A model generated the notes under the pieces. It was not told where the DNA came from. It worked only from the letters and a program-made list of their open reading frames with translations, and did no database searches. A stretch of 64,000 nt of DNA from Eubacteriales bacterium (lineage in GTDB: Bacteria; Bacillota; Clostridia; Oscillospirales; CAG-272). Numbering within the stretch: the first letter of the stretch is position 1; every line of letters begins with the position of its first letter. Positions 3,469 to 39,672 of this stretch are shown here, in pieces. Both the position numbers and the translations under genes were made by a program. The stretch spans positions 51,070 through 115,069 of the forward strand of contig JAZRXB010000247.1 of assembly GCA_045600005.1 (NCBI GenBank). Reading direction: 5' to 3'.

Positions 3469-3894
3469 ATGGAAATCGCTATTATCGCGGACGATAAGAA
3501 GAAAGAGCTTATGACGCAGTTCTGCATTGCGTACTGCGGCATCCTCTGCAAGCACAACCTCTGTGCGACCGGGATCACGGGAAAGTATATTTCCGAAGCG
3601 ACCGGACTGAAGATCGAACGGCTGCTTTCCGGCACGCATGGCGGCACACAGCAGATCACCTCGCGCGTGGCCTACAATGAAATCGACCTTCTCATCTATT
3701 TCCGCGACACATCGAAGGAGCCGGTGTACAGCGCGGAGGAGCATGACCTGCTGCGGATGTGCGACATCTATAATGTTCCGGTCGCTACGAACATTGCGAC
3801 GGCGGAAGTGCTGGTCTGCGCGCTTGAAAACGGCGGACTCGACTGGCGCGAGATCGTCAATCCGAAATCCGATTATAACCGCAAGAGCAAATAA
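3469..3894 (+). CDS. mgsA: methylglyoxal synthase
   Basis: IAIIADDKKKELM, ATGITGKYI, LSGTHGGTQQI and DLLIYFRD match MGS-family blocks (IAHDxKK, ATGTTG, GPxGGDQQ). Confidence 0.85.
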   Translation: MEIAIIADDKKKELMTQFCIAYCGILCKHNLCATGITGKYISEATGLKIERLLSGTHGGTQQITSRVAYNEIDLLIYFRDTSKEPVYSAEEHDLLRMCDIYNVPVATNIATAEVLVCALENGGLDWREIVNPKSDYNRKSK

Positions 3895-3900
3895 AATGAA

Positions 3901-3942
3901 AAGTGAAGTGAAGGGGATATGAACCTTCACTTCACTTTTTTG
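3901..3942 (+). terminator. rho-independent terminator of mgsA
   Basis: A 14-bp stem (AAGTGAAGTGAAGG / CCTTCACTTCACTT) followed by TTTTTT. Confidence 0.8.
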
Positions 3943-4047
3943 ATGAAGTTTATGAACCGCATTATGAAGTGAAATATGAAGCGGAGGACTGACTGCCGCT
4001 TCATACTTTCCCGCTGTCCATATTCCTGACGGAACAGGCGGGGAGAG

Positions 4048-30811: not shown

Positions 30812-30897
30812 TCCCCTGCCGCGCAGGATATCCCCGTCGGGCAGAGTTCCCGGCGGGGATATCCTGCGCTGCGTGGGATTTCCCGCGCGGCAGGGGA
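30812..30897 (+). other. GC-rich three-way structured element: a 9-bp outer stem enclosing a 21-bp hairpin and a 7-bp hairpin
   Basis: The large hairpin at 30821-30869 has 16 perfect bp plus 5 more (one is T.G). The second hairpin is at 30871-30888. The outer stem pairs 30812-30820 with 30889-30897. The T.G positions pair only in the plus-strand RNA. Confidence 0.7.
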
Positions 30898-30945: not shown

Positions 30946-30974
30946 TTGCATTTTTTTCGCGGATATGCTATACT
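30946..30974 (+). promoter_or_regulatory. sigma-A-type promoter, TTGCAT-17-TATACT, driving the pheS T-box leader
   Basis: TTGCAT at 30946-30951 and TATACT at 30969-30974. Confidence 0.6.
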
Positions 30975-31285
30975 GAATAAAGAATGTGATGATGGAGTCT
31001 GCCTGCCGACAGAACGGAAACCAGAGAGAGCCGACGCACCCCGTGTGCGGCTGAGAGCGGCTTTTCCGCGGCTCGGAGAGGGCGTTTCGCTCCGGAACAG
31101 CGACGGTGAACAGGAACGACCGGTTCGGTAGCCGCCGACGCCCGACCTGCGTTAAAGGGTCGCCGAGTGTATTGCTCAGGCGAATGCAGCTTGTGCGATA
31201 AATTAAGGTGGTACCGCGCAGCGGGTCATGAAAATGACGTCGTTTCGTCCTTAATCCGAGGGATGGAACGGCTTTTTATTTTGCG
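30975..31285 (+). promoter_or_regulatory. T-box leader (tRNA-sensing riboswitch), presumably Phe-specific
   Basis: AGAGAG at about 31023. The T-box sequence AATTAAGGTGGTACCGCG is at 31201-31218. The terminator stem CGTTTCGTCC / GGATGGAACG (2 G.U pairs) is followed by GCTTTTTATTTT at 31271-31282. A UUC at 31124-31126 is the candidate specifier (tentative). Confidence 0.8.
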
Positions 31286-31326
31286 GTCAAACACGATGCG
31301 ATCAAACACGAAAGGACAGAATAGAC

Positions 31327-32340
31327 ATGAAAGAAAAACTCGAACAGATCCGTGTCTCGGCGTGTGCCGAGCTTGAAAAGACGGATGCCGATCTTGAAGC
31401 GATCCGGATCCGCTTTCTCGGCAAAAAAGGAGAGCTGACCGCCGTCCTGCGCGGCATGGGACAGCTTTCCGCCGAGGAGCGTCCGGTGATCGGTCAGCTC
31501 GCCAACGAGGTCCGCGCCTTCATCGAAAACGCCATCGCCGAAAAAGCGGAGGAAGCGAAGAAGAACGCGCTCGCCAATAAGCTGAGGGAAGAACGTCTCG
31601 ACGTCACCATGCCCGGCAAGGCTCCCGCACTGGGCAAGCGTCATCCGCTCGCACAGGTCCAGAAGGAGATGGAGGACATCTTCGTCGGCATGGGCTTCGG
31701 CATCGTCGACGGTCCCGAAGTGGAGTATGATTACTACAACTTCCAGGCGCTGAACATCCCCGAAAACCATCCGGCGCGCGACACGCAGGACACCTTCTAT
31801 ATCACCGAAAACATTCTGCTCCGCTCGCAGACCTCGCCGGTGCAGGTCCGCACGATGGAAAAGCAGAAGCCTCCGATCCGCATCATCTCGCCCGGCCGTG
31901 TCTACCGTTCCGACGCGGTGGACGCTTCCCATTCGCCGCTGTTCCATCAGCACGAAGGTCTGGTCGTGGACAAGGGCATCACGATGGGCGACCTGAAAGG
32001 CACGCTTGAGACCTTTGCCAAGACGATGTTCGGCGAAGCGACCCGGATCCGGTTCCGTCCGCACCACTTCCCGTTCACCGAGCCGTCCGCCGAAGTTGAC
32101 GTTTCCTGCTTCGTCTGCGGCGGCAAGGGCTGCAGACTCTGCAAGGGAGAGGGCTGGATCGAGATCCTCGGCGCGGGCATGGTCCATCCGAACGTGCTTC
32201 GCGGCTGCGGCATCGACCCGGACGTTTACAGCGGCTTCGCTTTCGGCATGGGCATCGAGCGCGTCACGATGATCAGGTACGGCATCGACGATATGCGCTA
32301 TCTGTACGAAAACGACGTCCGTTTCCTCGATCAGTTCTGA
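31327..32340 (+). CDS. pheS: phenylalanine--tRNA ligase alpha subunit
   Basis: [30 protein letters not shown] and [16 protein letters not shown] are class II motifs characteristic of PheS. Confidence 0.97.
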
Positions 32341-32366
32341 TTCCCGTTCCGAAAGGAGAAAACGCC

Positions 32367-33608
32367 ATGCAGGATTGGTTCACGAAGGAGCATTTCGGAC
32401 TTTTCATCCACTGGGGCATTTATTCGCAGCTCGGACACGGCGAATGGGCGCGGTTCGGCGACGACCGGTACATTGACCCGGGCGAGTTCGATCCGAAGCG
32501 CTTTGACCCGGATGAATGGGCGGCGCTCGCGTGGGACGCGGGAATGCGCTACGTCGTTTTCACGACCAAGCATCACGACGGCTTCTGCATGTTCGACAGT
32601 CACTACACCGATTACAAGGTGACGAACACTCCGTTCGGGAAGGACGCGGCCCGCATGGTCGTCGAAGCGTTCCGAAAACGCGGCTTCCGCATCGGTCTGT
32701 ATCACAGCATCATCGACTGGCATCATCCGCATTACCGTCCCGACCGCAATCATCCCGCCGGAAGAAACGGCGAGACCGATTTCCCCGGCGTGAAGGACGA
32801 GCTTTACCGCGAATACCTGTACAACTCGGTCGAACAGCTCATGACCGAATACGGGAAGATCGACATTCTGTTCTGGGACTACTGCACGCAGTGGAAAACG
32901 CCGGAATATTTCGACCCCGAACGGCTTTTTGCCATGATCCGCCGTCATCAGCCTGACATTCTCATCAACGACCGCATGACCTTCGACCGCAACACGGATT
33001 TCCGCTGGACGGGCGATTACCGAACGCCCGAATGCGCCGTTCCGAACAGCCCGCCGTCCCGATACTGGGAAACCTGCGTCAGCGCGACGGCAAGCTGGGG
33101 TTATACCGTCAGCGATACGACGCGCAAGGACGTGCTCGGTTTCACCGCCGGACTGATGGCGTGCATCGCCAAAGGCGGCAATCTGCTGGTCAACTGCGCG
33201 CCTGACGGAGACGGCGTGCTGATCCCGAACAGCGCCGCGCTGCTTAAAGACCTCGCCGCATGGCACCGCGTCAACGGCGAAGCGATCCACGGCACGCACA
33301 AAGCCGAGGTCGAAGCGCCGTTCATGCACTGCATGACCCAGCGCGGAAAGTATCTGTATCTCTATATCCCCTTCGAGCCGATGGGACACATCCTGCTGCC
33401 CGGACTGCGCGGACGCTGCGAAAAAGCGATCCTGCTGCGGACGGGCGAGGAATGCCGGATGCGTCACTGGGGTCTGGAGGATTCACCGCCGGACGAATAC
33501 CGTCTGACGCCGGGAGCCGGGCAGTTAAAGCCGGGCGACGTCGTGCGCATCGAGCTGTGCGACGCTCCCGCCGTCGACGATGAGCTTTCGACCGGAGAAA
33601 TGAAATAA
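32367..33608 (+). CDS. alpha-L-fucosidase, GH29 (second, divergent copy)
   Basis: EHFGLFIHWGIYSQLG and RYVVFTTKHHDGFCMFDS. It starts 26 nt after the pheS stop. Confidence 0.88.
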   Translation: MQDWFTKEHFGLFIHWGIYSQLGHGEWARFGDDRYIDPGEFDPKRFDPDEWAALAWDAGMRYVVFTTKHHDGFCMFDSHYTDYKVTNTPFGKDAARMVVEAFRKRGFRIGLYHSIIDWHHPHYRPDRNHPAGRNGETDFPGVKDELYREYLYNSVEQLMTEYGKIDILFWDYCTQWKTPEYFDPERLFAMIRRHQPDILINDRMTFDRNTDFRWTGDYRTPECAVPNSPPSRYWETCVSATASWGYTVSDTTRKDVLGFTAGLMACIAKGGNLLVNCAPDGDGVLIPNSAALLKDLAAWHRVNGEAIHGTHKAEVEAPFMHCMTQRGKYLYLYIPFEPMGHILLPGLRGRCEKAILLRTGEECRMRHWGLEDSPPDEYRLTPGAGQLKPGDVVRIELCDAPAVDDELSTGEMK

Positions 33609-33697
33609 AAAACCGGCGAGGACCGGACGTCTCATGCCGAAAGGCATAGAAAGGATGCAGCCGCCGCAGGATTCTGCGGGACTGCGGGGATTCAGCC

Positions 33698-34258
33698 ATG
33701 TTTGTTATCGGAATTGCGGGCGGTACCTGCTCCGGCAAGACCACCCTTACGAACAGCCTTGAGGAAGCCTTCACTGCCGACGGTCTGAAAGTGACCGCCA
33801 TCCATATGGACAAATTCTTCAAGAAGCCGACGCCCAACACCATCGCGCCGATCACCGGGATCGAGTATCCCGAACACAATCATCCGGATTCCTTTAAGCT
33901 GGATGAGTTCTACGCCGCCATCGATGAGGCGAAGGCTTCGGACGCGGACGTGGTGATCGTGGAAGGTCTGCTCGTTCTGTACCTCGAACGGGTGCGCAGC
34001 GCGCTCGACTTAAAGCTGTTTGTCGACCTTCTGAGCGACGAGCGCATCGTGCGCCGGATCAAGCGCTTCATGCGCGACCGCGGGCAGACGCTCGACGAGG
34101 TTGCCGTCCGCTACCTCGACACCGTTCGCTACCGCCACAACGAATTCGTCGAGCCGTCCCGCTGGCACGCCGATCTGGTCATCAACGGTTCGGCTGACCT
34201 TGCGCGTTCGACGAAGCTGATCGGACGCATCGTCAAAGCGGAGCTGGCCGGAAAATGA
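33698..34258 (+). CDS. uridine-kinase/PRK-family P-loop kinase
   Basis: VIGIAGGTCSGKTT Walker A, VIVEGLL, and the DERIVRRIKRFMRDRG block, like Udk. Confidence 0.65.
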   Translation: MFVIGIAGGTCSGKTTLTNSLEEAFTADGLKVTAIHMDKFFKKPTPNTIAPITGIEYPEHNHPDSFKLDEFYAAIDEAKASDADVVIVEGLLVLYLERVRSALDLKLFVDLLSDERIVRRIKRFMRDRGQTLDEVAVRYLDTVRYRHNEFVEPSRWHADLVINGSADLARSTKLIGRIVKAELAGK

Positions 34259-35034
34259 GCTTGAAAATCCACATCTTCGGCAGCGATTCCGGCACCGAGC
34301 CGATGCCGGGACGCCACCACACCTCGTGGGCGCTCGAATACAGCGACCGGCTGTATTGGTTCGACGCAGGCGAGACCTGCTCCTATACCGCGCATCTGAT
34401 GGGGCTTGACCTGTTAAAGATCCGCACGGTCTGCATTTCCCATCCCCATATCGATCATGTCGGCGGGCTTGCCAACCTGTTCTCGGTCATACGCAAGCTG
34501 ACGTGGGTGAAGAAATGTCTTCCCGAAAACGAGATCGGGGTGTTTGTCCCGGAGCTTTCGCTCTGGAACGCCGTTCTGACCATTCTGTGCGGTTCGGACG
34601 GCAGTCTTGACCGCAGCTTTGCCACCCGTGCGAGCGAGATCGAACGCGACGGCGTGATCTTTGACGGGGACGGCGTGACCATCGAGACGCTGCATAACCT
34701 GCATCTCGGCGTGACCGACCCGTGGCGTTCGTACAGCTTCCGCATCCGCGCGGACGGGAAGACCATCGTCTTTACCGGCGACATCAAAAGCTCCGAGGAC
34801 GTCGACCGCTTCCTGCGGGAAGGCTGCGACCTGCTTCTGACCGAGACCGGTCATCACGCGCCCGACGCCATGCCGCGTTATATCAGAGAACACGGTTATC
34901 TGGTCGGTCAGATCGCCTATGTGCATCACGGACGGAAGATCTTAAATGAGCCGGCGGAATCCGAAAGACTGATCCGGGAAGCGTGGGACAGACCGTTTGA
35001 AATCTGCCATGACGCGCAGACGATCGAATTATAA
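34255..35034 (+). CDS. MBL-fold metallo-hydrolase
   Basis: ISHPHIDHVGG (HxHxDH), plus later His and Asp ligands (TETGHH). Its start overlaps the upstream stop (ATGA). Confidence 0.8.
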   Translation: MSLKIHIFGSDSGTEPMPGRHHTSWALEYSDRLYWFDAGETCSYTAHLMGLDLLKIRTVCISHPHIDHVGGLANLFSVIRKLTWVKKCLPENEIGVFVPELSLWNAVLTILCGSDGSLDRSFATRASEIERDGVIFDGDGVTIETLHNLHLGVTDPWRSYSFRIRADGKTIVFTGDIKSSEDVDRFLREGCDLLLTETGHHAPDAMPRYIREHGYLVGQIAYVHHGRKILNEPAESERLIREAWDRPFEICHDAQTIEL

Positions 35035-35067
35035 CGATACCAAAGCAAATGGAAAGGAAGTAACTCC

Positions 35068-37464
35068 ATGAATTTATCGCTTGAATGGGCTAACGATTTC
35101 GTCGATCTCGGCGGAATCACGGCAAAAGAATACTGCGACCGTATGACCGCGACCGGTTCCAAGGTCGAAGGCTTTGAAATCCTCGGCGAGGACATTGAAA
35201 ACGTCATCGTCGGCAGGGTCCTGTCTCTGGAACGTCACCCCGATTCCGACCATCTCTGGGTCTGTCAGATCGACTTCGGCGAGGAAACCCCGACGCAGAT
35301 CGTGACCGGCGCACAGAATCTGTTCGTCGGCGCGCTCGTCCCGGCAGCAAAGGCTCCGGCGAAGCTTCCCGGCGGCGTGACCATCAAGGCGGGCAAGCTG
35401 CGCGGCGTTCCGTCCAACGGCATGATGTGCTCCATCGGCGAGCTGAATCTGACCACGCACGATATGCCGGGCGCGTGCGAGGACGGCATCTTCATTCTGA
35501 ACGATTTCAACTGCAAGCCGGGCGACGACATCCGCGACGTGCTGAAGCTCTCCGACACCGTCGTTGAGTTCGAGATCACCTCCAACCGTCCGGACTGCCT
35601 GTCGGTCATCGGTCTGGCGCGCGAGTCCGCCGTTTCGTTCGAGAAGAAGTTCACGCTTCCGAAGCCGGTCGTCACCTTTGCGAAGGACGGCGATAAGATC
35701 GAAAACTATCTTTCGGTCGACGTGGCTGCCGACGCGAAGCTCTGCCCGCGCTATACCGCCCGCGTGGTCAAGAACGTGAAGATCGGTCCGTCTCCGCTCT
35801 GGATGAGGATGCGTCTGCGCGCGTCCGGCGTCCGTCCGATCAACAACATCGTCGATATCACGAACTATGTCATGCTCGAATACGGTCAGCCGATGCACGC
35901 CTTTGACTACGCCTGCCTCGACGGAAGCAAAATCATCGTCCGCCTTGCCGAAAACGGCGAGACCTTCAAGTCGCTGGACGACACCGATCACGTCCTGAAG
36001 GACACCAACCTTGTTATTGCCGACGAAAAGAAGGCGGTCGCTCTGGCAGGCGTCATGGGCGGCGCGAACAGCGAGATCAAGGACGGCACGACGACGGTCG
36101 TCTTCGAGAGCGCCAACTTCCTCGGCAGCTCGGTCCGCGTTACCGCCAAGAGCCAGGGTATGCGCACCGAAAGCTCGGGACGCTTCGAGAAGGGGCTTGA
36201 CCCCGAAAACACGATGCCGGCAGTCGACCGCGCGTGCGAGCTGGTCACGCTGCTCAGCGCGGGCGAAGTGGTCGAAGGCACGATCGACGTCTACAAGGGC
36301 AGAGAAGAGCCCTATAAGATGAAGCTCGAAGCCGACCGCATCAACGCCTTCCTCGGTCTGAACGTCAGCGCGGACTACATGAAGGAAGTCCTGAAAAAGC
36401 TCGAATTCGAGATCGACGGCGACACGCTGACCGTTCCGTCCTTCCGCGCGGACTGCCGCTGCATGAACGATATCGCGGAGGAGATCCTGCGCATTTACGG
36501 CTACAACACCATCGAAGCGACGAAATTCGTCACGCCGATCACCTCCGGCAGCCGCACGCCGGTCCAGAAGTTTGAGCTTCTCTGCGCCGAAACGCTCTGC
36601 GCGATGGGACTTTACGAGTGCGAGACCTTCTCGTTCATCAGCCCGAAATACTACGACCGGATCGGTCTTGCCGAAGACGACCCGCGCCGCAAATCCATCG
36701 TCATCTCCAACCCGCTCGGCGAGGATACCAGCGTCATGCGCACGACCGCCATTCCGTCGATGCTCGAGGTCCTGGCGCGCAACAACAACTATCACGCCGA
36801 AAAGACCGCTCTGTTCGAGCTGGCGAAGGTCTATCTGCCCGACAGCGACCCGGACAAGCTCCCGGACGAGCGCCGTCAGATCGTCATCGGCTTCTTCCGC
36901 GGCGGCGATTTCTATACGCTCAAGGGAATTTGCGATCAGCTGCTCGGCAAAGCGGGCGTGACGGTGAATTATGTCGCCGAATCGAACGACCCGACCTTCC
37001 ATCCCGGACGCTGTGCAAAGCTCGTCTGCGAAGACGGCACGGTCATCGGAACGATCGGTCAGATCCATCCGAACGTAGCGGCGAACTATGCCATCGAGGA
37101 AGCGGTCTATGTCGCCAACCTCGATTTCGAGGATCTGTTCGCAAAGGCTGACCTTACCAAGCACTTCACGGCTCTGCCGAAGTTCCCGGCGATCACGCGC
37201 GATTTCGCATTCGTCTGCGACGACGCGCTGGAGGTCGGCGCGATCGAAGCCGTCATGAAGAAAGCGGGCGGCAAGACGGTCGAAGCAGTCAAGCTGTTCG
37301 ACGTGTACCGCGGCAAGCAGCTCGGCGAGGGCAAGAAGAGCGTCGCGTTCAACGTCATGCTCCGCGCCGCCGATCACACGCTGACCGACGAGGAAGCGGA
37401 CAAGGCAACGAAGAAGATCCTCACCCTGCTCGACCGCGAGCTGGGCATCACGCTGCGCGCGTAA
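35068..37464 (+). CDS. pheT: phenylalanine--tRNA ligase beta subunit
   Basis: N-terminal tRNA-binding domain (VVGRVLSLERHPDSDHLWVCQIDFG), B3/4 and B5 regions, and a C-terminal FDX-ACB domain (FDVYRGKQLGEGKKSVAF). Confidence 0.97.
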   Translation: MNLSLEWANDFVDLGGITAKEYCDRMTATGSKVEGFEILGEDIENVIVGRVLSLERHPDSDHLWVCQIDFGEETPTQIVTGAQNLFVGALVPAAKAPAKLPGGVTIKAGKLRGVPSNGMMCSIGELNLTTHDMPGACEDGIFILNDFNCKPGDDIRDVLKLSDTVVEFEITSNRPDCLSVIGLARESAVSFEKKFTLPKPVVTFAKDGDKIENYLSVDVAADAKLCPRYTARVVKNVKIGPSPLWMRMRLRASGVRPINNIVDITNYVMLEYGQPMHAFDYACLDGSKIIVRLAENGETFKSLDDTDHVLKDTNLVIADEKKAVALAGVMGGANSEIKDGTTTVVFESANFLGSSVRVTAKSQGMRTESSGRFEKGLDPENTMPAVDRACELVTLLSAGEVVEGTIDVYKGREEPYKMKLEADRINAFLGLNVSADYMKEVLKKLEFEIDGDTLTVPSFRADCRCMNDIAEEILRIYGYNTIEATKFVTPITSGSRTPVQKFELLCAETLCAMGLYECETFSFISPKYYDRIGLAEDDPRRKSIVISNPLGEDTSVMRTTAIPSMLEVLARNNNYHAEKTALFELAKVYLPDSDPDKLPDERRQIVIGFFRGGDFYTLKGICDQLLGKAGVTVNYVAESNDPTFHPGRCAKLVCEDGTVIGTIGQIHPNVAANYAIEEAVYVANLDFEDLFAKADLTKHFTALPKFPAITRDFAFVCDDALEVGAIEAVMKKAGGKTVEAVKLFDVYRGKQLGEGKKSVAFNVMLRAADHTLTDEEADKATKKILTLLDRELGITLRA

Positions 37465-37471
37465 AACAATA

Positions 37472-37511
37472 CAGAAATCTGCCGTCCGGTCTGTCCGGCG
37501 GCAGATTTCTG
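37472..37511 (+). terminator. 13-bp hairpin after pheT (no clear U-tract)
   Basis: CAGAAATCTGCCG ... CGGCAGATTTCTG. Confidence 0.45.
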
Positions 37512-37530: not shown

Positions 37531-37567
37531 ATAGTCGATTGTAAAACTTCGTTTTACAATCGACTAT
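37531..37567. repeat. solo copy of the CGATTGTAAAAC-N3-GTTTTACAATCG palindrome (arms extended to 17 bp)
   Basis: ATAGTCGATTGTAAAAC-TTC-GTTTTACAATCGACTAT. The core ends 31 nt before the ATG at 37594. Confidence 0.9.
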
Positions 37568-39379: not shown

Positions 39380-39672
39380 TAGAGGATAGCAGAAAGGCTG
39401 TGAGCGGAAGGATACCGCGCAGACCGGTTACAGAGAATCGCGCCCCGGAAACGGGTGGTGAAAGCGCGCCGAGAGGTACGGTAAGAAGTGCGTCCGTGAG
39501 CCGTTCCGGTGAAGGTCAGTAGCCGGTTCCGTGCGCTTCACGTTACAGGAGCGGGAGATATCCGTCCTGCCGTTTTACGGCGGCGAAGGTCTCCGATGAG
39601 AACCAAAATAAAGTGGAACCGCGTCTCTGCCGCCTTTATGGATCCTTGCGATCGGGGGCGTTTTTTGTTTTA
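39380..39672 (+). promoter_or_regulatory. T-box leader, Cys-specific
   Basis: AGAGA at about 39432, distal GGTGGTGAAAG, and the specifier context GAAG-UGC-G with UGC at 39489-39491. The T-box sequence AAATAAAGTGGAACCGCG is at about 39606-39623. The element ends in GGGGGCGTTTTTTGTTTT. Confidence 0.8.

Follow-up and report, generated by a model that had tools for sequence, protein, structure and literature searches.

Results and Discussion

Gene organization of the interrupted pheST locus

The DNA analyzed here is a 64-kb stretch of contig JAZRXB010000247.1 from a Eubacteriales bacterium (GenBank assembly GCA_045600005.1), which is referred to as the window and to which all coordinates apply, and the system under study is its pair of genes for phenylalanyl-tRNA synthetase (PheRS), pheS and pheT, between which lie three other genes. 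On the plus strand, the order is pheS, a glycoside hydrolase family 29 (GH29) fucosidase gene, a Udk-like kinase gene, a metallo-beta-lactamase (MBL) hydrolase gene, and pheT, with successive intergenic gaps of 26, 89, -4, and 33 nt. This order, the common strand, the coordinates, and the gaps had been read from the letters alone in a first-pass annotation and are borne out by the open reading frames (ORFs) and their Pfam matches. The features of the block are as follows (SD, Shine-Dalgarno sequence).

31327-32340, plus strand: pheS, PheRS alpha subunit, 337 aa (Pfam tRNA-synt_2d, 356 bits, and Phe_tRNA-synt_N, both above cut-off)
32341-32366, plus strand: pheS-fucosidase spacer, 26 nt, with SD AAAGGAG (sequence reading)
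32367-33608, plus strand: GH29 alpha-L-fucosidase-family gene, 413 aa, no evident signal peptide (Pfam Alpha_L_fucos)
33609-33697, plus strand: fucosidase-kinase spacer, 89 nt, with a weak SD (GGGGA) for the kinase; predicted fold of -33.5 kcal/mol without a U-tract
33698-34258, plus strand: Udk-like P-loop kinase, 186 aa, of the pheST-embedded clade A described below (Pfam PRK)
34255-35034, plus strand: MBL-fold phosphodiesterase-type hydrolase, 259 aa (Pfam Lactamase_B), with a 4-nt overlap with the kinase stop (ATGA)
35035-35067, plus strand: MBL-pheT spacer, 33 nt, with SD GGAAAGGAAG for pheT (sequence reading)
35068-37464, plus strand: pheT, PheRS beta subunit, 798 aa (Pfam tRNA_bind, B3_4, B5, tRNA_synthFbeta, and FDX-ACB, all above cut-off)

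The Pfam domain architecture of both PheRS subunits is complete, including all five PheT domains, and the reading frames of the block are all intact. Every cistron either has a ribosome-binding site of its own or overlaps the preceding gene by 4 nt, and the GC content is uniform over the block and its junctions, with no discontinuity. The first-pass annotation had also raised the matter of a second pheST pair elsewhere in the genome; neither a second pheS nor a second pheT occurs within the 64-kb window, which is as far as that result reaches.

A divergent T-box leader upstream of pheS

Three features were assigned to the region directly upstream of pheS.

30946-30974, plus strand: putative SigA-type promoter (-35 TTGCAT at 30946-30951, 17-nt spacer, TG at 30966-30967, -10 TATACT at 30969-30974; sequence reading)
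30980-31255, plus strand: predicted Phe-specific T-box leader (Rfam RF00230, 53.5 bits, below the gathering score of 93)
31239-31282, plus strand: predicted leader terminator, a 14-bp stem (hairpin 31239-31272) followed by TTTTTATTTT (terminator scan, fold of -22.4 kcal/mol, and Rfam alignment)

The leader is missed by a default Rfam scan and shows only when an E-value threshold is used (7.9e-11 in a local scan, 7.2e-09 window-wide). It is counted here as a Phe T-box because of its specifier and Stem I pairing, its core with the UGGU bulge, its terminator, and its conservation in relatives. At the base of Stem I, GGAG (30994-30997) pairs with CTCC (31090-31093), and the specifier TTC (UUC in the RNA; 31086-31088), followed by a purine (G, 31089), stands directly 5' of that CTCC. 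The T-box core GGTGGTACCGCG occupies 31207-31218, within a longer T-box sequence, AATTAAGGTGGTACCGCG (31201-31218), that includes the UGGU bulge for the tRNA acceptor end. In the Rfam alignment, the 5' arm of the terminator overlaps the 3' strand of the antiterminator, making the two structures mutually exclusive. Among the loci of relatives (labeled L001 and so on), a T-box core lies no more than 400 nt ahead of pheS in 82 of 90; L081, L084, L001, L088, and L097 each have a single Rfam T-box upstream of pheS, scoring 55-72 bits and likewise below the cut-off, and the core aligns in the leaders of all five and the TTC specifier in those of the first four, a TTC being probable in L097. With E-values from 1e-9 to 1e-13, the leader is treated as a genuine though divergent member of the T-box family.

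The T-box and attenuator that the first-pass annotation placed ahead of pheS were thus recovered, with a UUC specifier, a core, and a U-run terminator, at a sub-threshold Rfam score. The promoter that it called clear is better described as putative: it is the top candidate between 30.8 and 37.5 kb in a lenient scan (-10 of at least 5/6 plus either a -35 of at least 3/6 or a TG), but its match to the consensus is only moderate (-35 3/6, -10 5/6, TG of an extended -10), and the stock scanner did not flag it. No tRNA genes were found in the window.

The pheS-pheT junction in related genomes

The junction was compared across 80 species-representative genome loci with pheS 66-89% identical to that of the window, nearly all from uncultured gut or rumen Clostridia (Eubacteriales or Oscillospiraceae), and the census covers the 78 loci in which both genes were readable. 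pheS and pheT are adjacent, 12-99 nt apart, in 59 species and interrupted in 19 (24%), five times by a kinase of the window type and 14 times by another insert or a long gap; all interrupting inserts are on the same strand as pheS and pheT. The earlier statement that the two genes are normally adjacent describes the first group well and passes over the second. The five kinase loci (L027, L029, L031, L037, and L043) carry the kinase alone, at 60-73% identity. Further inserts encode a GDSL lipase with DUF4358, a 195-aa membrane protein, and a transglutaminase-like protein, the last found in the genome of an isolate, Candidatus Soleaferrea massiliensis.

Besides the kinase, a second passenger recurs at the junction, a gene for a YitT/DUF2179 membrane protein present in six species of three host clades (L009, L013, L016, L033, L054, and L066). 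A gene for a 173-aa FlaR-like P-loop protein ("DNA topology modulation protein") lies there in three loci of one clade (L056, 1257-1778; L068, 10999-11520; and L069, where the 86-aa ORF looks fragmentary).

A kinase-anchored metagenome scan returned 80 loci, in 16 of which the kinase adjoins pheS and/or pheT, and it lies between the two wherever both flanks are readable; overall, ~25 loci have the kinase in this position. Essentially all kinase homologs of ~60% identity or more are embedded in this way, and more distant ones are found elsewhere. Neighborhood comparison of the non-embedded homologs gave no recurrent neighbors and hence no functional clue. Homologs of the kinase and of the MBL hydrolase share contigs in homolog searches. 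In the two nearest relatives, L081 (pheS 92% and pheT 85% identical to the window) and L084 (89% and 82%), the order is pheS-kinase-MBL-pheT, with gaps of 18, -4, and 16 nt and of 3, -4, and 26 nt, respectively, and the ATGA overlap of kinase and MBL genes is the same as in the window. The kinase-MBL pair is inside pheST in L081-L086, and the more distant L089 has pheS-kinase-pheT. Compared with the embedded-kinase loci as a group (L081-L092, L027-L043, and others), which have pheS-kinase gaps of 3-180 nt, the window shares the kinase clade (65-77% identity), the strand, and the Phe T-box, whereas none of them carries the fucosidase; in none of the 80 genome loci, nor in L081-L122, does this gene occur at the junction.

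The three genes, which the first-pass annotation regarded as unrelated insertions and possibly as one block, therefore differ in their standing. Kinase and MBL genes occur without the fucosidase in L081 and L084, the kinase occurs alone in L089, and neither is present in L001, so the three are not a single inserted block; the fucosidase is indeed lineage-specific, but the kinase is a long-standing resident, and the kinase-MBL pair is common to the nearest relatives. In L001 (pheS 89%), a 528-nt non-coding spacer (3488-4015) separates pheS from pheT, with a strong hairpin (GGGGAAACCTTTTTCTCGAAAAAGGTTTCCCC) directly before pheT; tblastx and blastn found no kinase or MBL remnants in this spacer.

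The region upstream of pheS also differs among these loci. Both nearest relatives have a gene for a YbaK-type tRNA_edit (trans-editing) protein, immediately before the pheS leader in L081 (5483-5977) and ~5.5 kb upstream with four genes in between in L084 (430-909), and a gene for a 401-aa GH29 protein lies near it on the opposite strand. In the window, GH29 and GH39 genes lie directly upstream of pheS, and no tRNA_edit gene occurs at that place.

A neighbor-joining (NJ) tree of PheS and PheT gave the topology (L089[kinase],(window[fucosidase, kinase, MBL],(L001[528-nt spacer],(L081,L084[kinase, MBL])))). The embedded kinases themselves form clade A (96% bootstrap), which includes that of the window, and clade B (67%), with non-embedded homologs between them and deep nodes unresolved; the hosts of clade A fall into two separate clades. 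Spread of the kinase by recombination through the pheS and pheT arms was considered and set aside: in junction-proximal 50-residue windows, the two host clades with kinase A showed no excess similarity relative to insert-free genomes, although old tracts would have decayed. The most economical history would have the kinase ancestral to the clade, the MBL gene gained before the split of the window, L081, and L084, and both lost in L001. The fucosidase would have been gained in the lineage of the window only.

Internal signals and the case for one transcript

The first-pass annotation had seen neither a promoter nor a terminator in any gap between pheS and pheT, and this held under closer scrutiny. 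On the plus strand of 32341-35067, the stock promoter scan reported nothing, and the lenient scan also found no promoter-like site where ~4.6 would be expected from the window background of 1.7 per kb. None of the gaps contains a canonical terminator by terminator scan or folding, and a terminator-like motif in the 89-nt spacer sits on the opposite strand. A window-wide Rfam scan recovered two T-boxes in total, neither of them inside the block. The end of the block is marked by one further feature.

37472-37511, plus strand: strong 17-bp hairpin after pheT (fold; without U-tract, not flagged by the terminator scan)

This hairpin is the probable end of the operon; the terminator-like hairpin that the earlier reading placed after pheT is thus present and strong, but lacks the U-tract. 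The best sigma-70-like match of the region is on the minus strand (TTTCCA-16-TATAAT, 10/12; 35055-35028) in the MBL-pheT spacer and would direct an antisense transcript into the MBL gene; matches of this kind are as numerous as chance predicts.

Our bioinformatics analyses suggest that the block from pheS to pheT is likely to be a single operon gated by the Phe T-box, in which the three passengers and pheT would be carried as read-through cargo. The one-transcript reading put forward in the first-pass annotation is in agreement with the single Phe T-box, the lack of internal signals, and the tight packing in relatives, this support being at the level of consensus sequences. The principal alternative, which we consider unlikely, is that promoters inside the block free pheT, and perhaps also the passengers, from control by the T-box, which would then gate pheS only or add to a constitutive downstream transcript. 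Such an arrangement would give the essential beta subunit its own control back, and the 2.7 kb between pheS and pheT might favor a supplementary promoter; on the other hand, PheRS requires equimolar subunits, which co-transcription supplies. Consensus scans may miss noncanonical or weak promoters within coding sequence, yet even the lenient scan fell from the ~4.6 sites expected to none. The 89-nt spacer is the only gap of the block long enough for a signal, whereas the gaps of L081 and L084, with kinase and MBL genes overlapping, are all at most 26 nt; these gaps, tighter than those of the block, leave no room there for intergenic signals.

The kinase and the MBL hydrolase

The kinase has the P-loop GGTCSGKTT, and its AlphaFold2 model (mean predicted local distance difference test score (pLDDT) of 92.3) has Udk and uridine-cytidine kinase (UCK) structures as its top 33 Foldseek matches, with template modeling (TM) scores up to 0.82. 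It shares the fold of Thermus Udk (3ASY/3ASZ) and human UCK1/2 at TM ~0.8 and 25-33% identity (32% at TM 0.82), and it has in common with Udk the P-loop and the conserved C-terminal half. The NCBIfam Udk models were both failed, with 127.8 against a cut-off of 180 for NF004018 and 119.4 against 220.3 for TIGR00235. In comparison with Thermus Udk, residues 73-105 are shrunk to ~10 residues or profile positions, leaving the nucleoside-binding segment incomplete. This segment presumably carries the nucleoside-specificity residues, for example Tyr93 of the Thermus enzyme, and its reduction suggests that the substrate of the kinase may differ from that of Udk. Judged by model and sequence, the protein is Udk-like yet should not be called Udk.

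The MBL hydrolase has a metal site (D37, H63, H65, D67, H68, H147, D176, and H224; HxHxDH/H/D/H) that is invariant in 46 homologs. Its AlphaFold2 model (pLDDT 95) is closest in fold to 8GYG (the top match, an entry named as an arylsulfatase), RNase Z (1Y44), YhfI (6KNS), ZipD (2CBN), and PNGM-1, at TM 0.75-0.83, which places it, as modeled, in the RNase Z/ElaC branch. It shares with that branch the MBL fold and a complete metal site, whereas identity is only 13-19%; the protein is shorter than RNase Z (259 versus ~307-320 aa), and its NCBIfam RNase Z match scores 62.9 against a cut-off of 292.95 and covers profile positions 1-138 of 302 only. Precomputed tables list the Apyc1 family for homologs of this protein, but the Pfam Apyc1 model (PF23023) is failed (17.6 bits against a cut-off of 50), and the fold match to Apyc1 (7U2R) is weaker, at TM 0.61-0.68, than that to RNase Z or YhfI. 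With no PADLOC match and Pfam Apyc1 below cut-off, assignment to a defense system was rejected.

Approximate ratios of nonsynonymous to synonymous substitution rates (dN/dS), approximate in that dS is saturated, were 0.08-0.11 for the kinase, 0.25-0.27 for the MBL hydrolase, and 0.04-0.09 for pheS and pheT, all in the range of purifying selection. The kinase and the MBL hydrolase are old, conserved, and functional residents of the locus under purifying selection. Because a phosphodiesterase is here translationally coupled to a nucleoside-type kinase, the pair suggests a two-step pathway, and its substrate is probably of the nucleoside or nucleotide type, with phosphodiester cleavage and phosphorylation as the two steps.

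A further alternative is that the kinase, with or without the MBL hydrolase, is a functional partner of PheRS or of tRNA-Phe metabolism and is kept in pheST by selected co-regulation; the two enzymes might, for example, jointly process RNA ends or a by-product that is a nucleotide. In at least three cases (Udk-like clade A, clade B, and the FlaR-like protein), the junction is occupied by small P-loop kinases, but the same slot also holds YitT, the GDSL lipase with DUF4358, the transglutaminase-like protein, and the fucosidase, for which a permissive slot is the better fit. Likewise, by dN/dS the kinase is under constraint as strong as that on pheS and pheT, and its homologs of at least ~60% identity are almost always embedded whereas distant ones are not; yet 59 of the 78 species do without any insert, and L001 lost kinase and MBL genes with no replacement. 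The fold of the MBL hydrolase points to the branch of RNase Z, a tRNA 3'-processing enzyme, but its distant relatives (47-49% identity) are in unrelated gene contexts, the non-embedded kinase homologs have no tRNA-related neighbors, and our literature searches found no such link. Taken together, a dedicated partnership with PheRS appears improbable, more so than internal promoters, and passengers carried in a permissive slot of the pheST operon are the reading that we favor.

The fucosidase, a recent arrival

The fucosidase gene is the sole lineage-specific, recent insertion of the three passengers. Its product is a full-length GH29 protein that matches Alpha_L_fucos over profile positions 27-345 of 345 (245 bits against a cut-off of 25.2), and an Asp in its ILFWDY motif aligns with the equivalent motif of a homolog in a sequence alignment. 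Its nearest homologs (L167, 74% identity; L168, 69%; and L169-L171, 63%) are all away from the pheS-pheT junction, and those of L168 and L169-L171 lie in glycan-degradation clusters with beta-helix proteins, GH28, and GH2. Two other origins were considered and rejected: local duplication or relocation of a neighboring GH29 gene, as identity is only 28% to the upstream GH29 of the window and 37% to that upstream of pheS in L081, and acquisition recognizable as foreign DNA, as there is no GC discontinuity at the gene. The homolog in L167 (701-2124), from another metagenome, is followed on the same strand by cysS after 62 nt, and this GH29 lineage thus adjoins an aminoacyl-tRNA synthetase (aaRS) gene in two different genomes.

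The pheS-fucosidase spacer of the window (TGA TTCCCGTTCCGAAAGGAGAAAACGCC ATG) resembles the pheS-kinase spacer of L081 (TGA TTCTGAAAGGATAACGAT ATG), a likeness that would fit, as weak evidence, the insertion of an ORF with its tail directly upstream of the kinase start codon. The junction was also recovered independently: ENA contig L172, from an independent assembly of another sample, covers positions 33445-34482 of the window at 92.7% nucleotide identity and contains the 3' end of the fucosidase (98% identical at the aa level), the spacer (conserved, with 83 nt in place of 89), the kinase (98% at the aa level), and the 5' end of the MBL gene. Its reproduction in L172 shows that the junction is real and common to at least two strains. 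An assembly or binning artefact that joined a fucosidase-bearing fragment to pheST is hardly credible, since L172 reproduces the junction from fucosidase to MBL gene, GC content is uniform, and all reading frames are intact, even though the source looks like a metagenome-derived contig and proteins 100% identical to the MBL hydrolase and fucosidase are recorded on a single 140-kb NCBI contig.

Between the window and L172, nucleotide identity falls from ~95% to ~75% inside the 5' region of the MBL gene (34345-34482), and residues 1-88 of the MBL protein are 74% identical whereas the kinase is 98% identical. This drop suggests a recombination breakpoint or a fast-evolving segment.

A proposed permissive slot inside an essential operon

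T-box riboswitches are known to control aaRS genes, amino-acid biosynthesis genes, and transporters (PMC3766115, PMC2494555), of which aaRS genes are the commonest cargo (PMC3766115), and pheST T-boxes have been reported in streptococci (PMC4829319). As in T-box-regulated pheST of Firmicutes (e.g. Bacillus subtilis; RF00230), the window has a UUC specifier, a UGGU core, and an exclusive antiterminator/terminator before pheS; it differs in the three genes, neither aaRS nor amino-acid related, between the subunit genes, and in a leader that, like those of its relatives, scores below the Rfam cut-off. In the pheM-pheS-pheT-ihfA unit of E. coli, an unrelated passenger, ihfA, also travels on pheST with a Phe-responsive leader, and the RefSeq name of pheM is "pheST-ihfA operon leader peptide." There, however, ihfA follows pheT, pheS and pheT are 14 nt apart, and control is by leader-peptide attenuation, whereas in the window the passengers are inside and a T-box is used. 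Genes embedded between pheS and pheT did not turn up in our literature searches, and the kinase-bearing loci of the relatives are likewise unannotated and undescribed as far as we could find. Streptococci may have a gene for a GNAT acetyltransferase at this position, which is not counted as evidence here. Control of pheST by a T-box is standard; the embedded genes are of interest for operon evolution and for an uncharacterized kinase subfamily and are not a new mechanism.

In the scheme that we propose, transcription would start near 30975 and, with charged tRNA-Phe, stop at the leader terminator; uncharged tRNA-Phe would pair with the UUC specifier and stabilize the antiterminator, allowing read-through, and all downstream genes, the essential pheT included, would be expressed from that one transcript. 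As to its history, a Udk-like kinase may first have settled between pheS and pheT in an ancestor of the clade; an MBL hydrolase of the RNase Z branch would then have been added behind it, translationally coupled through the ATGA overlap; and in the lineage of the window a promoterless GH29 ORF with its 89-nt structured tail would have landed between pheS and the kinase, where it sits behind an SD resembling the former SD of the kinase. The pheS-pheT junction would in this way act as a permissive slot, in which a promoterless gene gains housekeeping-level, Phe-responsive expression. The slot may also be sticky, as a passenger would be hard to lose without harm to pheT, which any polar mutation or imprecise deletion would silence. 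We infer both this rationale and the order of events from the comparisons above.

Several points weigh against this interpretation. Co-transcription of the block, which is inferred, depends on the absence of recognizable signals, whereas consensus scans are weak and the promoters of the host may not fit a sigma-70 model. The 89-nt spacer has a strong predicted fold (-33.5 kcal/mol), through which it could cause attenuation or processing of the transcript or hide the kinase SD. The leader is below the curated Rfam cut-off (53.5 versus 93 bits), and the copy number of pheST has been seen for 64 kb of the genome only. The history rests on NJ trees of PheS and PheT themselves, with deep nodes unresolved, and a single and a double capture of the kinase are both compatible with the trees; moreover, the dN/dS values are approximate because dS is saturated, and the resemblance of the window and L081 spacers rests on a generic SD motif.

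If the block is one transcript, uncharged tRNA-Phe would switch on the genes for a glycoside hydrolase, a nucleoside-type kinase, and a metallo-phosphodiesterase, and expression of an essential synthetase subunit would require that three passengers be transcribed first. Across the clade, the junction between the PheRS subunit genes would be a recurrent slot for promoterless genes, in 24% of species, and would offer a natural system for how essential operons gain and keep passengers. The survey also flags a conserved, uncharacterized kinase subfamily with its genomic home inside pheST, and uridine kinase should not be the default name for these embedded kinases in annotation.

Features flanking the block

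The surroundings of the block are rich in carbohydrate-active enzymes, with GH29 and GH39 genes upstream and GH43 and CBM9 genes downstream. The stretch from the GH39 stop codon to the pheS promoter contains a long, nearly perfect inverted repeat (GCGCAGGATATCCCCG...CGGGGATATCCTGCGC; 30821-30869), which gives spurious matches to miRNA families and is probably a terminator of the upstream gene or an insulator, though without a U-run. On the other side, between the hairpin after pheT and the start of the GH43 gene, a perfect 17-bp palindrome (ATAGTCGATTGTAAAAC...GTTTTACAATCGACTAT; 37531-37567) could be an operator or a second terminator.

The second T-box leader of the window, at 39391-39640, scores 54 bits (E-value 5.5e-09), below the Rfam cut-off as well, and precedes a serine-acetyltransferase (cysE-like) gene, after which a cysS-like gene begins at ~40654. 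Because the mechanical start of the cysE ORF (39613) overlaps the leader, the true start is probably further downstream.

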